Positions 3 through 7,604 of a stretch of DNA of 29,479 bases are shown piece after piece. Below the pieces are notes generated by a model. That model did no database searches. It was not told where the DNA came from and worked only from the letters and a program-made list of their open reading frames with translations. The stretch comes from Minisyncoccota bacterium. Its GTDB lineage: Bacteria > Patescibacteriota > Minisyncoccia > Phycocordibacterales > UBA6065. Where the stretch lies: assembly GCA_035765615.1 (NCBI GenBank), contig DASTXF010000082.1, forward strand, positions 1 through 29,479. The letters are read 5' to 3'. Each line of letters opens with the position of its first letter. Position 1 is the first letter of the stretch. A program made the position numbers and the translations under genes.

Positions 3-110
3 TACACGACCGTGAACGCCGCATGGCCTCGCGGTTTCCACCCTTTTACGGCCTACGCCGTGAAAGCAACTGCACCTACAACCGAAACTGAAGGAAAGGA
101 GACTGAATAG
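3..110 (+). CDS. 3' end of a gene truncated by the window edge (…YTTVNAAWPRGFHPFTAYAVKATAPTTETEGKETE*); possibly the kinase-like partner of the vWA/PurA-like operon
   Basis: The frame is open from base 3 to TAG at 108-110, and the next ATG is at 112 with AAGGAG embedded in this tail. The product guess rests only on my recollection of similar operons and is weak. Confidence 0.5.
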   Translation, partial: YTTVNAAWPRGFHPFTAYAVKATAPTTETEGKETE

Positions 111-111
111 T

Positions 112-1239
112 ATGGGAGAACATGTGCTTTCTAAGGAAGCCTACACGCGCGTCGCCGATTCTGTGCGAAGCGAAGGGGGCTCCGCCACCCGTCGCGGGGA
201 ACAGCGTCTCGAATCAGGCAAGGGGCTCGATCCTCTTGTCGATCCGAAAGGCTTCGGCGCCATCAGGCGTTCGATTTCCCGCAAGGAAAAGCGCGGAGAC
301 CACTTCGTGCTCACCGTCGGCACGGCAATGCTCCTCGAGACCCAATTCGACGGCACGAGTTCCATGCGGGACAACGTCGACCTGGCGTTCGGGTCGCTTC
401 CGAAGGGGTACCATCTCCTCAAGGAAGCGGACAATGCACCGCTCGCGCGCTACGATCTGCAGAACATCAACGGCGTCTTCAACGACATCGGTGACAGCGT
501 TCTGCTTACCCGCTCGCAAGCGGAAATGGACGAGAAGATCGCGGAACAGCTCCGCCTTCTCATTCCGTGCCGGGCCGGAGGCGACATTGAGGAAGATCCG
601 CATTACGGACTCTTCGGTGCGGCCTACCTCACGGCGGCCGAAATCGTGAAGTACGGCCTCAAGTCGTATCATTTCACGGCCACGGATGCGCCGGGGCGGC
701 ACGAGACCATCTGGTCCGAGCTGCGCCGCGTGTACGGAGACGACGTGCTCGATATCGTCGAGTCGAATGGCTTCCAGATGAAAAAGGGAAGTCTGCCATC
801 GACGACCGAAATCGTGGCTGAGCTTCTGAAACGGGCGCATGCGTTCGTGATCCAGATCGGCAGCGATTCGGATACGGCGCGGTTCTGGACGGAAATCTAC
901 GGCCCCGAACGGGTCGTGACCATTCCGACGGCGCGGCACATCGCGGAGACGGAAGCGGCCATTGTCGGCCTCACCGAAGGAACCCTCGACCTTCAAGGTC
1001 TCGAGGAATTCCTCGTTGAGGAAGGCAAGCTGTCGCATTCCTCGGCAGGCCTCATCAGAGAGGCTGTCGCGGGCATTCCGATTGGCGCGCAGGCGGCCTT
1101 GCCGAATTTCGGCAAGATCCCGCTCAAGGGCGCCAAGTTCGCCCAGAAGAGCGATCTCTGGCCGATCGACGCCAAAGAGCCGGCCGCTGCGAAACCCGCA
1201 GTCAAAGCCGGACCCAAGAAGGGAATGTGGCGCCCATAA
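112..1239 (+). CDS. vWA (von Willebrand A)-type domain protein, 375 aa
   Basis: MIDAS-like FDGTSSM (nt 346-366) follows a hydrophobic strand. Downstream blocks (DLQ..NGVFND, SQAEMDE, AGGD.E, KSYHFTATD) follow the pattern of vWA proteins I recall next to PurA-like genes. SD AAGGAG is present. Confidence 0.75.
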   Translation: MGEHVLSKEAYTRVADSVRSEGGSATRRGEQRLESGKGLDPLVDPKGFGAIRRSISRKEKRGDHFVLTVGTAMLLETQFDGTSSMRDNVDLAFGSLPKGYHLLKEADNAPLARYDLQNINGVFNDIGDSVLLTRSQAEMDEKIAEQLRLLIPCRAGGDIEEDPHYGLFGAAYLTAAEIVKYGLKSYHFTATDAPGRHETIWSELRRVYGDDVLDIVESNGFQMKKGSLPSTTEIVAELLKRAHAFVIQIGSDSDTARFWTEIYGPERVVTIPTARHIAETEAAIVGLTEGTLDLQGLEEFLVEEGKLSHSSAGLIREAVAGIPIGAQAALPNFGKIPLKGAKFAQKSDLWPIDAKEPAAAKPAVKAGPKKGMWRP

Positions 1240-1287: not shown

Positions 1288-2685
1288 ATGCACACCAAAC
1301 AGATATTCACCGTCACCGACCTCGGGGGAGGCGACGGAGGAAAGGGAGGAATCGTCCATAAGATCGCCATCGAGACAAATGCCCATACCGTTCTCAAGGT
1401 AGGCGGCGCCCAAGGCAGCCATGGCGTTCGCACTTCGCGCGGCGAAGCGTTTAACTTCAGCCAATGGGGCTGCGGAACATTCGAAGGCGTGCCAACCCAT
1501 GTCACGAGCCTCATGGTCATTGACCCTGTTGGCTTCGTGCATGAGGGCAACCGCCTGCGCTTCCAGCACGGCGTTCCGAACGCCTTCGACATGATCACTG
1601 TCGACGAAAACTGCCTCTGCGCGACGTCATTTCATGGCATCGCATCCCGCCTGCGCGAACTTGCGCGGAAAGGGAAGCAGAAAGGCACCGTCGGCGTGGG
1701 GATCGGCGAAGCGAAGCTCGATTCCGAGCTTCGTCCCGATCTCGCGATCTATGCGAAGGACCTCGGCAGTCCCGATTTATTTGATCGGATCGAAGCAGTC
1801 CGAAAGCACAAGCTTTCGGAGCTGTCGGAAATCATCGAAAATATCAGGGATCTCTGGCCGAACGATCTCAGCCTTGCCGAGCGTGAGATTGATCTCTTGA
1901 ACGACGAAGGCTATTCGCGATGGATCACAGCGAAGTTCCACGAAATGAAATCGAGGACTCGCATTGTTCCTGCTGAATACCTATCGCGCGAGATTCTTTC
2001 GAAAGACGGCACTGCTGTCGTCGAGAGTTCCCACGGCGTCCTCACCGACAAGTACTACGGATTCCATCCGTACGTATCACGGCTGCGGACATTGCCGGAA
2101 GCGACAGCGGGCCTCCTTCGGTCAGCCGGTTACGATGGTGAAATCGTGCGTCTCGGGGTAACCCGGGCGTATCAGATTCGCCACGGCGCCGGTCCTCTTG
2201 TGACCGAGTCTTCCGAGCTCACGGACAAATTGCTGCCCGGAAGCCACAAGAACGAGAATCGCTGGCAAGGGAAGGTTCGTGTCGGGCCGCTCGACTTCGT
2301 AGCCTTGCGCTACGCTGTCGATGTCTGCGGCGGACCGGGTGCGTTCGATGGTATCGCTGTCACTTGGTTCGACCAGATTCTTGTCGCAGGCGCGTGGCGC
2401 ATGTGCGACCGGTATCTGAAAACGAATGGTTCCGAGTTCTTTTCTTCCGATGGCCGAACGATTAATGTTCGGCGCGGCGAAGACGAAAGCCAGATCCGCC
2501 GTCAGGCGGAACTTGCGGAGGCGCTCTTCAAGTGCGCTCCTGCGATTGATTCGCACGAGCCTCTCGGAAAGGGTGACGAAGCAAAAGCGACCGAGCTTTG
2601 CTCCGCGGTCTTCGATGAAAAACTCGGAGTTCCGGTACGGATGATATCCTTCGGATCGACCGAGGATGGCAAGGTTTGTCTTTAG
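1288..2685 (+). CDS. Adenylosuccinate synthetase-like (divergent PurA family) protein, 465 aa
   Basis: P-loop DLGGGDGGKG (PurA: WGDEGKG), GGAQGSH (PurA: GxNAGH), GTVGVGIG, ESSHGVLTD..YGFHPY (PurA: EGAQGxxLD..xGxYPY), C-terminal ISFG. Confidence 0.85.
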   Translation: MHTKQIFTVTDLGGGDGGKGGIVHKIAIETNAHTVLKVGGAQGSHGVRTSRGEAFNFSQWGCGTFEGVPTHVTSLMVIDPVGFVHEGNRLRFQHGVPNAFDMITVDENCLCATSFHGIASRLRELARKGKQKGTVGVGIGEAKLDSELRPDLAIYAKDLGSPDLFDRIEAVRKHKLSELSEIIENIRDLWPNDLSLAEREIDLLNDEGYSRWITAKFHEMKSRTRIVPAEYLSREILSKDGTAVVESSHGVLTDKYYGFHPYVSRLRTLPEATAGLLRSAGYDGEIVRLGVTRAYQIRHGAGPLVTESSELTDKLLPGSHKNENRWQGKVRVGPLDFVALRYAVDVCGGPGAFDGIAVTWFDQILVAGAWRMCDRYLKTNGSEFFSSDGRTINVRRGEDESQIRRQAELAEALFKCAPAIDSHEPLGKGDEAKATELCSAVFDEKLGVPVRMISFGSTEDGKVCL

Positions 2686-2694
2686 GACGATTGC

Positions 2695-2726
2695 AAGGCG
2701 GAAACTCCACGTTTCCGCCTTTTTTC
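2695..2726 (+). terminator. Rho-independent terminator
   Basis: AAGGCGGAAAC/GTTTCCGCCTT stem plus T run, just after the stop at 2685. Confidence 0.85.
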
Positions 2727-2856: not shown

Positions 2857-4083
2857 ATGGCACCTGCAGAAAGCAGCCCCGCGGCACCCGCCGCGGCCCC
2901 CAATGCCTGGGAAGAACGCATCAAGGCGTTCTCCGAGGCAGTTTCGAAACCGGCCGATGACATCGTCACGGCCTTGAAGCCCCTGGTGGGCGAACCCGGA
3001 CCGGCGGCCCTCGCGGCCCTCTCCGATCCCACGGCGGTGACCGACACCGATCTCCAGGAAGCCCTCTCGAAGGGCGGCCCGGCGATCCCGCTCGGCATCC
3101 TCCGCAAGAACCTGTCCAAGCTCCGCGGCCCGCAGATCGCGGGCGAGCCGGCCACGGCCGAACGCGCGCACTCGTTTGATGCCTTGCCCTCGGTTCCCGA
3201 GGACGCGAGCTTCCTCGAGATGCTCAAGGTCGGCGGCAGTCTCAAGGTCGGCAAGGTCGAAGTGATCTCCGCCATGAAGGCGGCGATCGCCGAACAGCTC
3301 GGACTCTTCGACATTCCGACGACGCTCACCGAGAAGATGGAATCGTTCGCCGAGGCGCAGGAAGAGCCCGTCGGCCCGGACTTCTACACGCTCAGGAAGC
3401 TCATCGCTCGCCGGAGCTACGCCGAAGTCCTCGCTGTCCTCGACGTGCCGGGTGATTTCGTCACCGCCGGCCGCCGCTCGGCCTTCCTCGAGAAGCTCAA
3501 CACGCTTCTCTGGCCGGAACTCGCGAGTTTCCACCGCCAATTGGTGGGGTGGTCCGACTCGTGGAATACCGGCGCGGCGAATCCCGGCCTGGCCCTCACC
3601 ATGATGGCGATGGCGCAGTCGGGCAATCGCATGGCCATGCCACCTGGCATGCTCCAGCCGCCGGATACTTCGGCGGTTCGCGATTCGGCCGAGGCGCTCA
3701 TCAACACCATCAACAAGGTGTTCGCCGGCTTCGGCATTCCCGTCGCCCGCGCGCTCGCCTACGACGCGACCAAGATCAAGGAGGTGCTGGAGAACAACAA
3801 GCTCCCGCCTGCGATCGGCGCGACGAACAAGGACCAGATGCTCAAGATGCTCGGCATCGCGGTCGGCGCGGATTATGTCCGCACCGAGCGGAACATCACC
3901 CGGTACACCCTGGCGGCCATGGAGCTCAAGGACGTCCCGGGCGGCAACGAGGAATACGCCTATCTCGGCGCGCTCCTCCAGCTCGGTCTCACCATCCAGT
4001 GGGACAAGCTGCCGGGCGGCGTCGCCACCCGTGCCGGAATCGGCCGCGGGACGCGGAACGGCATTCACGAACGGGCCTTGTAG
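2857..4083 (+). CDS. Hypothetical alpha-helical protein, 408 aa, with a possible N-terminal SAM-like domain
   Basis: Long ORF with strongly biased G/C-ending codons, SD AAGGAG, and its own promoter and terminator. Segment LAALSD..VTDTDLQEAL…IPLGILRKNLSKLR resembles a SAM helix pattern. Confidence 0.85.
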   Translation: MAPAESSPAAPAAAPNAWEERIKAFSEAVSKPADDIVTALKPLVGEPGPAALAALSDPTAVTDTDLQEALSKGGPAIPLGILRKNLSKLRGPQIAGEPATAERAHSFDALPSVPEDASFLEMLKVGGSLKVGKVEVISAMKAAIAEQLGLFDIPTTLTEKMESFAEAQEEPVGPDFYTLRKLIARRSYAEVLAVLDVPGDFVTAGRRSAFLEKLNTLLWPELASFHRQLVGWSDSWNTGAANPGLALTMMAMAQSGNRMAMPPGMLQPPDTSAVRDSAEALINTINKVFAGFGIPVARALAYDATKIKEVLENNKLPPAIGATNKDQMLKMLGIAVGADYVRTERNITRYTLAAMELKDVPGGNEEYAYLGALLQLGLTIQWDKLPGGVATRAGIGRGTRNGIHERAL

Positions 4084-4104: not shown

Positions 4105-4135
4105 GCCGGACAACCAATGGTTGTCCGGCTTTTTT
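4105..4135 (+). terminator. Rho-independent terminator between convergent genes
   Basis: GCCGGACAACC/GGTTGTCCGGC 11-bp perfect stem plus TTTTTT; A-rich run upstream suggests it is bidirectional. Confidence 0.9.
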
Positions 4136-4139
4136 ATTC

Positions 4140-5912
4140 CTACCGCGAGATGTGAGGCAGGAAGACTTTCTTGAGGAACAGCTTCGAAGCAAGGCGGCGA
4201 TAGCCCGGATCCCAGAAGGATACGTTCGTCGCCAGAGCATCGGACTTCGGAACGAATTCCGACGTCCGTTCCGGGTTCGATCGGGCATACCCTTTGTGCA
4301 TAAGGCGATAGAGCAGGATGTCCCGCTCCATCTCGAGAAGCCAGACCGTCCGGGCGCTTTGCCCGAGGATCCGTTCAGAGCCGTTTGCGTAGAGGTACCG
4401 TTCGAGCACATCGGCGAAGAGCCTCCGCAGGACGCTTTCTTCGCCCGTCCAGATGCTTCCGAAGAGGACATGAACGAGCGTGCTGTCGCCCTGCGTGCGG
4501 TCAGGATCAGGGAAATCCCTGATCCTGAGGCCGCGCTCATCGCTTTCGAGCCAGAAGTCCACAGGCATTCCGATGCCAAGCGGCTCCAGGGTTTCCTTCA
4601 GGAGTTTCTGGATGGCAGCTCGATGCTCGTACGGCACGCCAGGCTTCACGAATATCGCCGTGTCGAGGTCGGCGGTGCGACTCCCGTATCCCTTGATGCG
4701 AGAACCGTACGCGATCGCGACGGGCAGAACATAAGCGCCCGCTTCGCTGTGGGCGATAGCTTGCGCGATCGATGAATACTCATCGACTTCGATTGAGCCA
4801 AGGGCCACGCCGCCTTCGAGATCGGGCATTTGGAGCCCGAGGGTCGAAAGGATGTCTGCCTCCGCGACGCCTCCGGCAACAAGCCGGAAAAACGCGCTTT
4901 CGGCAGCGTCGGCTGTTTCCTGGTCGGCATCCGTAAGGCACGCGGCGAGAAAGGGCTTGAACGAAGGGAAGAGGTCGGGAGCAGTCTCGGTGGCCATTTG
5001 CGCCACGAGAATGCCGATCATTGTCATATCGGCATCTTCCTGACCAAGGTTTTGCAGAAACGCGTCGGCCGAGATGGTTCCCGCCTTGAGAAGCAGGGAA
5101 ATATCTTTGGCAGCCCGGCGTATTGCCGCAGCCTTGTCGCGTTTCATTTCCCAGGCGATCCTCGTCTTCGGTTTCCCAAAATAGAGGTGAGAATCCTGGC
5201 TTTCCTTGATCTCTTCGCGCGCCAAGGCGAGCCGTTCAGAGAGCCGTGTCGAATCGTAATGCTCCGAAGGTTTCGGATCATTGCCGATGCAGTCGATGGC
5301 TTCCATCGCGCTTTTTCGGAGGGTGAGGTTGTCTGCCGAATCACGGATGAATTCCGCTTCTTCGCGCGAAATGAATCCTTTCGCGATAAGAATCGGAATG
5401 AAGTGCGCGGCTTTGACCACGCGGGGCAAGGGGCCCGTGCGCATTTCCGCCTCGGGTATGTCCCCGTCAACGAAATTGGCCCGGGTGTCCTCGCACGAAA
5501 GAAGCTCGTGCCACGCCCGCAGGTACGAATCGCGGAAACGGCTTGCCGCTGCGGCAAGTTTGATTTCCGTGGGTTTCCAGTCTCGCTCCGGGAGGAGCTC
5601 GAAGGGAAGGTAGAGGACAAGCCGGTCGCTCCAGGGTTCCGCGTGCAAGTAGAACGCGAGCCGCTGGTATGCGGAGGCGGCTTCGATCTCAGTTACGAGA
5701 CCTGCAGCGACAGCCTTTTGGAGGCTCATCGAGGGATTGGGAATCCGCCGAAAGAGCGAGTCGAGGTCGTCGATGGCCAATCTGCGCCATTCAGCGTATT
5801 TCCTGAGCCACGAGTCGTCGAGGACGCTTTTCCTCCAGAACGAATCTTGGCCGGGATTAAGAAGCGAGTCGACCGGGGGCCGAATCGCCAGAAAACATTC
5901 TGTTTGCTTCAT
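4140..5912 (-). CDS. Pol-beta superfamily nucleotidyltransferase domain protein, 590 aa, with a long helical N-terminal region
   Basis: YGSRIKGYGSRTADLDTAIF = hGS…DxD motif (nt 4662-4706); candidate third acid in PVDFW. Confidence 0.8.
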   Translation of the reverse strand: MKQTECFLAIRPPVDSLLNPGQDSFWRKSVLDDSWLRKYAEWRRLAIDDLDSLFRRIPNPSMSLQKAVAAGLVTEIEAASAYQRLAFYLHAEPWSDRLVLYLPFELLPERDWKPTEIKLAAAASRFRDSYLRAWHELLSCEDTRANFVDGDIPEAEMRTGPLPRVVKAAHFIPILIAKGFISREEAEFIRDSADNLTLRKSAMEAIDCIGNDPKPSEHYDSTRLSERLALAREEIKESQDSHLYFGKPKTRIAWEMKRDKAAAIRRAAKDISLLLKAGTISADAFLQNLGQEDADMTMIGILVAQMATETAPDLFPSFKPFLAACLTDADQETADAAESAFFRLVAGGVAEADILSTLGLQMPDLEGGVALGSIEVDEYSSIAQAIAHSEAGAYVLPVAIAYGSRIKGYGSRTADLDTAIFVKPGVPYEHRAAIQKLLKETLEPLGIGMPVDFWLESDERGLRIRDFPDPDRTQGDSTLVHVLFGSIWTGEESVLRRLFADVLERYLYANGSERILGQSARTVWLLEMERDILLYRLMHKGYARSNPERTSEFVPKSDALATNVSFWDPGYRRLASKLFLKKVFLPHISR

Positions 5913-6026
5913 GTGTAAAGGAATTCTTTCCCCTTTCTATAACGAATATTAAGCTATGTCAAATTATCTTTGGCTCGTGGAATTTTAACTTTCGACAGAC
6001 ATCTGCTATAGTCAAAACCCAATATT

Positions 6027-7124
6027 ATGTCTCTTTCAATCGGCATCGTCGGTCTCCCAAACGTAGGCAAATCAACCCTTTTCAACGCCCTTACTCGAAA
6101 GAGCGTTCTTGTGGCGAATTATCCGTTCGCAACTATCGATCCGTCAGTTGGCGTCGTCGCCGTCCCTGACCTGCGCCTGTGGAAGCTTTCGGAATTTTCG
6201 AAATCGAAAAAAACCGTTCCGGCTGCGGTTGAATTCGTTGATATTGCGGGCCTTGTGAAAGGCGCGGCCCAAGGCGAAGGCCTCGGCAACAAATTCCTTT
6301 CGAATATCCGCGAGACTGACGCTATTGCCGAAGTTGTGCGTATATTCGAGGACGACGATATCATTCATGTTTCGAACAAGATCGATCCGCTCCGCGACAT
6401 AGAAGTCATCAATATGGAGCTCATTTTCGCCGATCTCGATACGGTGACCAAACGCATGCAGAATATCGGCAAGGACGTGAAGGCTGGAAAAAAGGAAGCC
6501 GCGATCGAAATGAAGCTTTTGGAGCGTTTGAAGCCGTCGCTTGAAGCGGGGAATCTCGCGTCGACGGTTTCCGCAGACGAATTCGAAGCGCCGTTCTTGC
6601 GCCAACTCCATCTCCTCACTTCCAAGAAAATCCTTTATGTTTTGAATAAGAAAAGCGGCGGCAGGAACCTTGATGAAATGAAAGACGAGCGCTATACGAA
6701 ACTCATCGATTTCATTGAGAAGAGCAAGGCAGGCTACGTCATCGTCGATGCGGGCATCGAACACGATTTGAAAGACATGTCGGACGCAGAGAAAGCCGAA
6801 ATGCGCCAGGGGCTCGGCGGTATCGATAATGGCATCGATAACCTCATCAAGAAAAGCTACGAAATTCTCGGCCTCATTTCGTATTTCACGACGGGTGAAG
6901 ACGAAACGCGCGGTTGGACGATTCAGAAAGGCTGGACGGCGCCTCTTGCGGGCACGGCTATTCATACGGATTTCAAAGACAAATTCGTGCGCGCTGAAGT
7001 AATCGAGTGGGACAAGCTTCTTGCGGCCGGCTCATATGCTGCCGCACGCGAAAAAGGCCTCATCAGGACCGAAGGCAAGGAATACATCGTAAAAGACGGC
7101 GACGTGATCGAGTTCAAGATTTAA
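6027..7124 (+). CDS. ychF: Obg-family redox-regulated ATPase YchF
   Basis: GIVGLPNVGKSTLFNALT, ANYPFATIDP, DIAGLVKGA..GEGLGNKFL, C-terminal EGKEYIVKDGDVIEFK. Confidence 0.98.
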   Translation: MSLSIGIVGLPNVGKSTLFNALTRKSVLVANYPFATIDPSVGVVAVPDLRLWKLSEFSKSKKTVPAAVEFVDIAGLVKGAAQGEGLGNKFLSNIRETDAIAEVVRIFEDDDIIHVSNKIDPLRDIEVINMELIFADLDTVTKRMQNIGKDVKAGKKEAAIEMKLLERLKPSLEAGNLASTVSADEFEAPFLRQLHLLTSKKILYVLNKKSGGRNLDEMKDERYTKLIDFIEKSKAGYVIVDAGIEHDLKDMSDAEKAEMRQGLGGIDNGIDNLIKKSYEILGLISYFTTGEDETRGWTIQKGWTAPLAGTAIHTDFKDKFVRAEVIEWDKLLAAGSYAAAREKGLIRTEGKEYIVKDGDVIEFKI

Positions 7125-7133
7125 AAACGCTCC

Positions 7134-7604
7134 ATGAATTATTGGCTCGTAAAATCGGAAGGCGAGTGTTATTCGATCGACGATTTAAGACGAGATAAAC
7201 GCACTGCGTGGGAAGGCATCCGTAATTTCCAGGCGCGGAATTTTATGAAAGATGGCATGAAGATCGGAGACTTGGTGCTTTTCTATCATTCGATGTCGGA
7301 GCCTACGGGTGTTTATGGAATCGCACGGGTTCTGAGCGCGCCGCATATCGATGCATCCGCGCTTGATCCTAAGGACGAACATTACGATCCGAAGGCAGTG
7401 AAGTACCAAAAAGAAGGAAAGGATCCATTGTGGTCTTGCGTCGATCTTGAATTCGTCAGGAAATTCGATCGGCCGGTGTCGCTCGAAGAGATAAAAAGCA
7501 ATCGCGCTCTCGATGGCATCCTCGTTGCGCGCCGAGGACAAAGACTCTCCGTCATGCCAGTTATCGAGAGTCATTTCAAGACAATCGAGAAGATGGCCGG
7601 GTAA
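7134..7604 (+). CDS. EVE domain (PUA-like) protein
   Basis: MNYWLVKSE…WEGIRNFQARNFM..MKIGDLVLFYHS…RLSVMPV is the typical EVE pattern. Confidence 0.93.
   Translation: MNYWLVKSEGECYSIDDLRRDKRTAWEGIRNFQARNFMKDGMKIGDLVLFYHSMSEPTGVYGIARVLSAPHIDASALDPKDEHYDPKAVKYQKEGKDPLWSCVDLEFVRKFDRPVSLEEIKSNRALDGILVARRGQRLSVMPVIESHFKTIEKMAG

Follow-up and report, generated by a model that had tools for sequence, protein, structure and literature searches.

The closest described relatives of the gene considered here are the adenylosuccinate synthetase PurA (EC 6.3.4.4; Pfam family PF00709; structures 1ADE and 1CG0) and PurZ/PurZ0 of the 2-aminoadenine pathway (6FM1, 7ODX, and 7VF6), which, like part of the clade described below, is a phage-carried PurA paralogue. 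In phage PurZ, a serine replaces the catalytic aspartate in 147 of 147 sequences (PMC12884076), although PurZ itself is still aspartate using. Here, we analyzed a PurA-like gene located on the forward strand, at positions 1288 to 2685, of a 29,479-nucleotide contig (DASTXF010000082.1, assembly GCA_035765615.1; the window) of a bacterium belonging to the Patescibacteria (CPR). An original prediction, made from the letters of this DNA alone, had proposed that the enzyme keeps the phosphorylate-then-substitute chemistry of PurA with a different amine donor, nucleobase acceptor, or nucleoside triphosphate (NTP), which would make it a new base-modifying ligase. By combining the open reading frame, Pfam searches, alignments, a structural model, a phylogenetic tree, and dN/dS ratios, we arrive at the reading that the 465-amino-acid protein is a PurA-fold, GTP-dependent ligase whose donor is not aspartate and which works in NAD/ADP-ribose-linked nucleotide metabolism, a reading whose chances we regard as about even.

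The open reading frame is stop-free over its 465 codons, and its product (labeled P0001) matches PF00709 (Adenylsucc_synt) with an E value of 1.3e-30 and 107 bits, against a gathering cut-off of 27. It nevertheless stays below the NCBIfam purA equivalog cut-offs (77 bits versus 395 for TIGR00184 and 73 versus 402 for NF002223), and its top profile match, with 129 bits, is PHROG 1211, which bears the PurZ name; the databases name the family adenylosuccinate synthetase. An AlphaFold2 model built from 78 relatives (pLDDT 93.9) matches about 30 solved PurA structures, 1CG1, 1IWE, and 5I34 among them, with Foldseek E values of ~1e-28 and TM scores of 0.70 to 0.78, which is far beyond chance. The PurZ/PurZ0 structures rank 34 to 42 in the same comparison, beneath every cellular PurA entry (TM 0.45 to 0.57), with an E value of 1e-14 and TM scores of 0.51 to 0.57 for PurZ. 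The structural comparison places the protein in the PurA fold and closer to cellular PurA than to PurZ. PurZ identity was rejected because the catalytic aspartate is retained; as for the partners of Z-genome phages (datZ, mazZ/DUF550, dpoZ, dutZ, and dmtZ), none is among the Pfam matches of the surrounding gene cassette, in which no dedicated search for them was made.

The likeness to PurA extends from the fold to the catalytic core. In alignments to E. coli PurA (HMMER and MAFFT; residue numbers such as Asp13, His41, and Thr300 follow the E. coli PurA literature), the P-loop GGGDGGKGG (residues 13 to 21; positions 1324 to 1350) retains both Asp13, as D16, and Lys16, as K19, and the stretch GGAQGSHG (residues 39 to 46; 1402 to 1425) retains the catalytic His41 as H45. 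The guanine-reading Asp333 is kept as D362 where TKLD has become TWFD (residues 359 to 362; 2362 to 2373), and the counterpart of the guanine-binding S-x-G-P reads SFGS (residues 454 to 457; 2647 to 2658), where the family consensus is SFGP. Among the 78 relatives, K19, H45, and D362 are invariant, D16 is found in at least 90%, and S454 and G456 are invariant or at least 90% conserved.

The residues that hold the substrates in PurA, in contrast, have been exchanged. The aspartate loop GATTGRRRR aligns with NRWQGK-VR, part of the rebuilt loop NRWQGKVRVGPLD (residues 324 to 336; 2257 to 2295), which is shorter by one residue and has Thr300 replaced by Trp, Thr301 by Gln, and Arg305 by Val, with Arg303 either deleted or turned into Lys. 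Together with the change of Arg131 to Val, all of the L-aspartate ligands (Thr300, Thr301, Arg303, Arg305, and Arg131) are replaced. On the side of inosine monophosphate (IMP), Asn38-Ala-Gly reads Gln42-Gly-Ser, Thr129 has become Val, Gln224, a ligand of the IMP base, has become His249 within ESSHG (residues 246 to 250; 2023 to 2037; specific to the CPR clade), Thr239 has become Ser, and Arg143' is not conserved, so that the cradle of the IMP 5'-phosphate is partly lost. Lys331 is the Trp of TWFD, Leu228 is Thr, and Val273 is His299 within RHGAGP (residues 298 to 303; 2179 to 2196), a signature of the entire PurA-like clade; the donor pocket as a whole contains a new Glu and a new His. The motif changes on which the original prediction was built are thus all found in the alignment, which adds those at Thr129, Arg131, Arg143, Gln224, Leu228, and Val273.

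Since the active-site replacements are fixed in the 78 family members, they are not peculiar to the window copy. Those in the aspartate loop and at Thr129, Arg131, Val273, and Lys331 are common to 40 CPR members and 119 members of an actinobacterial and phage type. P0001 and the 40 CPR proteins share Gln38, His273 (40 of 40), and an aromatic-Gln-Gly loop minus one residue, with Asp13, His41, and Asp333 retained; the 119 likewise have Gln38, His273 (119 of 119), and the aromatic-Gln-Gly loop with one deletion, retain Asp13, Lys16, His41, and Asp333, and have lost Thr129, Arg131, Arg303, Arg305, and Lys331. The two types differ at position 224, which is His in 40 of 40 CPR members and Gln in 119 of 119 of the others, and the actinobacterial and phage type moreover retains Leu228 and has His, not Trp, at position 331.

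The genomic context of purine synthesis speaks to the donor as well. In the source genome (88.6% complete), P0001 is the sole PF00709 gene, and neither a Lyase_1/PurB gene nor an IMP dehydrogenase was found. Lyase_1 was also not found in the carrier genomes G015 (100% complete), G086 (98%), and G302 to G305, and G301 shows one weak match; overall, 7 of 8 carriers are without a PurB-type lyase. Two genomes with a canonical PurA were tested, and in one of them (G166) a Lyase_1 gene lies ~1.6 kb from PurA.

The original prediction had allowed for a change of donor, acceptor, or NTP, and its three parts fare differently. Phosphorylate-then-substitute chemistry with a changed partner stands insofar as the phosphotransfer core is invariant or nearly so in the 78 relatives and the donor is apparently no longer aspartate. 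A changed NTP, on the other hand, is not supported: with D362 invariant and S-x-G-P retained, GTP is probably still the phosphoryl donor. Given the retained catalytic core and the largely retained guanine-reading elements, the most parsimonious interpretation is that GTP drives the transfer of a phosphoryl group to an oxygen of the acceptor. All of the clade has lost the residues that bind aspartate, and PurB is missing in 7 of 8 carriers, which makes L-aspartate a very unlikely donor. With three arginines gone and aromatic or hydrophobic residues gained along with Glu, His, and Gln, the donor pocket argues against a dicarboxylate; its composition would favor ammonia, a neutral or cationic amine, or possibly a protein side chain. 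As for the acceptor, Gln224 together with Asp13 in the actinobacterial and phage type would suit a 6-oxopurine; the phosphate cradle is weakened.

The gene is maintained by selection. Its dN/dS ratio of 0.12 to 0.18, taken from the least saturated pairs, reveals purifying selection in place of the relaxed selection that, along with a lack of activity, would have spoken against the original prediction; it indicates a working enzyme and rules out a decaying pseudo-enzyme. More than 900 database proteins match P0001 at 52 to 66% identity, and among the matches listed all those with a source name come from metagenome-assembled genomes of Patescibacteria. Among 301 evenly sampled Patescibacteria genomes, only three (~1%), the source genome included, contain the family, which excludes a universal Patescibacteria gene. 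About two dozen of the 301 gave weak matches only, five of which were fetched and are canonical PurAs with 38 to 45% identity to the E. coli protein. A species-level collection yielded 154 loci in Paceibacteria, Saccharimonadia, and Falkow-, Uhr-, Davies-, Moran-, Ryan-, and Nomurabacteria, so the gene is taxonomically widespread yet rare. In a maximum-likelihood tree, canonical PurA (E. coli plus the five canonical CPR proteins) is split from the PurA-like superclade with 100% SH-aLRT support, and the CPR clade is monophyletic, sits on a long stem, and is placed among actinobacterial and phage lineages. P0001 is a member of a large, uncharacterized sister clade of PurA, separated from it also by carriers that mostly are without PurB. 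A third type of PurA-like protein, encoded in carrier G086 (L103:8013-9491; 492 amino acids), shows 31% identity to P0001 and 27% to E. coli PurA and has a very long branch; no Lyase_1 was found in its genome.

These data also bear on whether P0001 could be a true, very divergent adenylosuccinate synthetase that supplies AMP under reduced purine metabolism, a possibility that the database naming, the PurA fold and catalytic core, and its standing as the only PF00709 gene of the source genome speak for, but that we consider highly improbable given the replaced aspartate ligands, the altered Thr129, Arg131, Arg143, and Gln224, a score of 77 bits against a 395-bit equivalog cut-off, the missing lyase that would complete the reaction, the presence of canonical PurAs in a separate clade in other CPR genomes (one near Lyase_1), and the restriction of the gene to so few of the sampled genomes. 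A housekeeping PurA identity was rejected on the same grounds, namely the missed cut-offs, the replaced aspartate and IMP ligands, and the missing PurB.

The PurA-like gene is accompanied by fixed partners. In nearly all of 80 CPR loci, a kinase-like gene (~275 amino acids), a von Willebrand factor A (vWA)-like gene (~375), the PurA-like gene, and a gene for a helical protein (~400) follow one another and are met by a convergent gene for a Pol-beta-type nucleotidyltransferase (NTase; ~600). The window copy has the vWA-like gene directly upstream of the PurA-like gene and the kinase-like gene before it. PurA is not known to have such fixed partners. The same core occurs outside the Patescibacteria: 201 mycobacteriophage records match P0001 in a tblastn search of phage genomes (~34% identity, E 1e-38), with all of the matches listed being Bxz1-type phages, and this match is far better than that of E. 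coli PurA. In the phage Catera (Bxz1-type; cluster C, Bixzunavirus), gp249 (a "kinase"), gp250, a small gp251, and the PurA-like gp252 lie in this order, and profile comparison identifies gp249, gp250, and gp252 as homologues of the CPR kinase-like, vWA-like, and PurA-like proteins. Catera gp252 falls into the same clade as P0001 (hhalign 100%, 32% identity) and shares with it the W-Q-G loop, Gln38, His273, and the retained Asp13 and His41. Unlike the CPR loci, Catera has no gene for the helical protein in the surveyed gp242 to gp253 flank, a genome-wide search for it not having been made, and an NTase, searched for throughout the record, was not found. With gp252 as the query, thousands of relatives are retrieved, including chromosomal copies in Verrucosispora/Micromonospora, Actinomadura, and Thermopolyspora, where the order is a Nudix+NrtR_WHD regulator, kinase-like, vWA-like, and PurA-like gene. 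The phage copies suggest a role of the module during infection. On a 167-kb phage-like contig (L094), an AAA/novel-STAND NTPase gene (DUF5925; 5393-6502) precedes the triad, and R2K ATP-grasp and HAD-PNKP genes lie nearby. Our literature search retrieved no paper on the PurA-like clade or the module and none linking PurA-like enzymes with vWA proteins or Patescibacteria; the mycobacteriophage papers found merely list the PurA-like gene, and the paper on NARP3 does not mention it.

A hint at the metabolic context comes from the regulator NrtR, which binds a 21-bp palindrome with the consensus core GT-N7-AC and is freed from DNA by ADP-ribose (PMC2330246). The Nudix+NrtR_WHD gene is directly upstream of the module in three of three actinobacterial loci. 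In the CPR, nrtR lies within 8 kb of the PurA-like gene in 18 loci, where about one would be expected by chance (a rough estimate for a single-copy gene, 16-kb windows, and ~1-Mb genomes), while nadE and pncB do so in 7 loci each. When the DNA preceding the first cassette gene was searched de novo for inverted repeats, TAGTGT-N7-ACACTA emerged, whose core is the published NrtR core. With up to two mismatches allowed, this palindrome occurs in the 300 nt ahead of that gene in 26 of 73 CPR cassettes, and its density there (32 sites in 22 kb, versus 59 in 1.05 Mb of the remaining locus sequence) corresponds to a 26-fold enrichment. In these relatives, the module shares both its regulator and its operator type with the NAD salvage genes of NrtR regulons. 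The source genome contains only four palindromes with at most one mismatch. An nrtR-nadE-nadD-pncB operon on contig C110 (L107:2790-7767) carries palindromes at 2822 and 2872, showing that the source genome retains an NrtR-controlled NAD salvage route. Two more palindromes, with one mismatch each, were observed at C101:17401-17442 (L108, ~4402-4443) upstream of an SPFH/Band 7 gene that is followed by a gene for a 304-amino-acid protein of unknown function and a TrkA-type K+ channel gene; this locus may be an unrecognized NrtR target. Published NrtR regulons also list genes of unknown function, nrtX-nrtY, in Streptomyces, Frankia, and Kineococcus (PMC2330246), which might correspond to the module.

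Taken together, regulation and gene neighborhood point to a metabolism linked to NAD/ADP-ribose, and we infer that phosphotransfer is retained, that the donor is not aspartate, and that the role of the enzyme is NAD related. In such a scheme, NAD+ breakdown would yield ADP-ribose, which would release the NrtR repressor and allow the module to be expressed. The PurA-like enzyme would then use GTP to phosphorylate a nucleotide at an oxo or carboxyl group, and the phosphate would be displaced by a nucleophile other than aspartate, such as ammonia or a neutral or cationic amine, to give a product that belongs to NAD/adenine-nucleotide metabolism. The enzyme would act within a fixed module with the vWA-like metal-site protein and the pseudokinase and, in Patescibacteria, with the helical protein and the NTase.

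Several points weigh against this proposal. The geometry of PurA catalysis is tailored to the O6 of a purine, so a pyridine or ADP-ribose acceptor would need an altered binding mode. Co-regulation with NAD genes is no proof of a role in NAD turnover, and at the threshold used, the palindrome is missing in about two thirds of the CPR loci. A search for NrtR-type sites around the cassette of the source genome was negative; the first gene of this cassette lies on a contig of 2.5 kb, preceded by flavodoxin-like and G6PD genes, and the regulatory link is consequently shown for the relatives and not for the window copy. The source genome already has nadE, nadD, and pncB, so that a role in NAD salvage would be additional and not essential. 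Finally, the vWA assignment comes without a Pfam vWA match among 31 members and without a credible PDB profile match (A2 and the broader A7).

It is tempting to go one step further and to envisage an undescribed NAD+/ADP-ribose recycling route, in which the enzyme, switched on through NrtR upon NAD+ cleavage, would carry out a GTP-driven phosphorylation and substitution on a nucleotide derived from pyridine or ADP-ribose, the fused or adjacent CPR NTase would finish a dinucleotide, and the core carried by large actinophages would help them outlast NAD-depleting immunity beside the NAD+ reconstitution pathways NARP1 to NARP3. The module core is, as in those pathways, found in large phages, but it has no homology to Prs/Adps, Nampt/Namat, NMNAT, or PnuC/NadR, the link being regulatory and positional only, and we think this elaborated version unlikely.

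Turning to the partner genes of the window, only the 3' end of the kinase-like gene Z285 (the last 35 codons and the stop; positions 3 to 110, forward strand) is included, and it resembles the end of a homologue in locus L003. The remainder is found by tblastn on contig C56, where it runs off the contig start (homologue residues 1 to 236 at C56:741-22); the cassette is thus complete but split by the assembly. The family profile matches the CK2 kinase catalytic/DWG region (E 2e-7). Because the position of the catalytic-loop Asp varies and 12 of 25 members have Gln in place of the beta3 Lys, we regard the protein as a pseudokinase. The phage and actinobacterial pseudokinases (L087:4604-5677 and L093:6840-7889) are ~70 amino acids longer than those of the CPR, and their N termini show a faint match to the J-domain of DnaJ (E ~0.03). 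The next gene (112 to 1239, forward strand) encodes the vWA-like protein A375 (375 amino acids), whose family has an invariant MIDAS-type motif, D80-x-T82-x-S84, and whose structure in the ESM Atlas matches a "putative VWA" cluster (TM 0.72); the family aligns with Catera gp250 and the Actinomadura homologue in hhalign at 98.7 to 98.9%. The tail of the vWA-like protein (encoded at 1135 to 1239) reads K-x-D-L-W-P ... W-x in Patescibacteria, after a variable linker, and ends in (T/D)-R-L in actinobacteria and phages; the conservation of the extreme C terminus suggests docking or modification. A terminator-like hairpin with an 11-bp stem and a T run (2695 to 2721, forward strand) closes the unit of pseudokinase, vWA-like, and PurA-like genes.

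Beyond this hairpin, the conserved helical partner C408 (408 amino acids; 2857 to 4083, forward strand) has an N-terminal SAM/HhH-like domain. Its model (pLDDT 80.6) found no Foldseek match at an E value of 0.001 or below and no usable ESM Atlas match. VIA-align gave Z scores of 4.4 to 6.4, a range expected for helical bundles, to the bundles of alpha-pore-forming toxins (C-terminal part) and to HhH/SAM domains (residues 14 to 98). Neither C408 nor the vWA-like protein has a Pfam or NCBIfam match, and a PDB profile search with the helical protein (A3) returned nothing credible. Fumarase rows in the Foldseek output raised C408 as a hidden PurB-type lyase, a candidate that was dropped at a TM score of ~0.12. 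The C408 gene has a very strong bias for codons ending in G or C (GC content at third positions, 0.86, compared with ~0.60 in the housekeeping genes ychF and leuS of the window), which may mean that the gene is very highly expressed or was recently acquired from a foreign source. A bidirectional terminator-like hairpin (4105 to 4129) separates C408 from the NTase gene D590 (4140 to 5912, reverse strand; 590 amino acids), which is convergent to the cassette in ~70 of 80 loci. The D590 family has invariant G403-S404 and D415-x-D417 residues and weak MntA/Polbeta matches, behind a long helical N-terminal region. In this region (A5 positions 181 to 238), weak matches to TALE repeats add up to an E value of 6e-8, with no single stretch passing; they may denote a repeat-like nucleic-acid-binding element or an artifact of composition. 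Two natural fusions join the partners, namely, P0245, a PurA-like::C408 protein (hhalign E 3e-98), and P0246, a PurA-like::D590 protein (E 4e-54) with a vWA-like fragment just upstream. As PurA-like and NTase genes normally lie on opposite strands, P0246 is not a read-through artifact. In 56 of 57 loci, the cassette is richer in GC than its flanks, the average difference being 6 points (0.60 versus 0.51 in the window). In the window, the high-GC block stops at ~5.9 kb, and the genes that follow at 6027 to 7604, ychF (TIGR00092, 428 bits) and an EVE-domain gene, have the usual GC content of the genome.

The raised GC content of the cassette is one of several features that would fit a conflict system, acting in bacterial defence and in phage counter-defence, in which the module would generate or break down a signal made of a modified nucleotide, or else deplete a nucleotide pool. 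The distribution is patchy, down to 3 of the 301 sampled genomes, the flanks differ from locus to locus, the NTase is fused to or adjoins the PurA-like enzyme, and the core occurs in ~200 mycobacteriophage records and on phage-like contigs, there beside an AAA/STAND-type NTPase. NAD+ cleavage is, moreover, a frequent immune output (PMC13464706), and NrtR would sense such cleavage. However, PADLOC has no model that matches the PurA-like, helical, or NTase protein and only a marginal one for the vWA-like protein (PDC-M05B, E 0.034, 12.5 bits), and the cassette is without a recognizable effector such as a nuclease, a pore, or an NADase. A search of IMG/VR found just 3 CPR-type loci, by which the CPR cassette is not mainly viral, and in Actinobacteria the module forms an operon on the chromosome, downstream of a metabolic regulator. 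We view a conflict system as unlikely.

Alternatively, the substrate could be a protein. An acceptor activated with GTP might be joined to the vWA-like partner, or the C-terminal tail of that partner activated, with the pseudokinase serving as a chaperone-recruiting scaffold. The vWA-like gene is the invariable upstream neighbor in three distant lineages, and both the Lys-x-Asp-Leu-Trp-Pro motif and the C terminus of its product (Trp-x in the CPR, Thr/Asp-Arg-Leu in actinobacteria and phages) are conserved. Likewise, the exchange of the donor-site arginines for aromatic or hydrophobic residues and a new Glu would be compatible with a peptide or the amino group of a lysine, and the faint J-domain matches at the phage and actinobacterial pseudokinase N termini would fit the recruitment of a chaperone. 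Yet the tail motifs vary by lineage while the enzyme loop is common to all, and there is no sign of contact between the PurA-like and vWA-like proteins, for which a complex prediction (score 0.10, mark 0.32) neither supports nor opposes binding. We know of no PurA-family enzyme that acts on a protein and hold protein modification to be rather improbable. Systems of the TerY-P type also pair a vWA protein with a Ser/Thr kinase, much as the vWA-like gene adjoins a kinase-fold gene here; they differ from the module in that its kinase is mostly without the catalytic Asp, that it has no PP2C phosphatase, and that a PurA-fold enzyme is the third partner.

One could also imagine that the protein has given up ligase chemistry and regulates its partners as a GTP-binding switch or scaffold, in the manner of a SIMIBI-type GTPase. 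The GTP-binding elements are indeed the best-conserved part and the acceptor and donor pockets the changed ones, and the neighbors are likely regulatory (pseudokinase and vWA-like protein). Such a role is nonetheless quite improbable, as the residues specific to phosphoryl transfer, the equivalents of Asp13 and His41, are invariant or nearly so, and the strong conservation of the rebuilt loop across lineages argues for a defined new ligand over a lost one.

Under the reading that we prefer, a GTP-dependent ligase with a donor other than aspartate, thousands of database entries that bear the name adenylosuccinate synthetase, from Patescibacteria, Actinobacteria, and ~200 mycobacteriophages, are probably misnamed. 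As the function of these proteins is probably a different one, metabolic reconstructions that have their carriers make AMP from IMP would be wrong. After PurZ, the clade would be a second case in which nature has given the PurA scaffold a new specificity, and here the amine-donor pocket, and not the acceptor, was rebuilt. The question is accessible in tractable hosts, such as Bxz1-type phages on Mycobacterium smegmatis and culturable Micromonospora and Actinomadura. With its fixed partners and its tie to NrtR, the module may harbor undescribed chemistry where purine and NAD metabolism meet, an area that is central to current work on the conflict between phages and bacteria.

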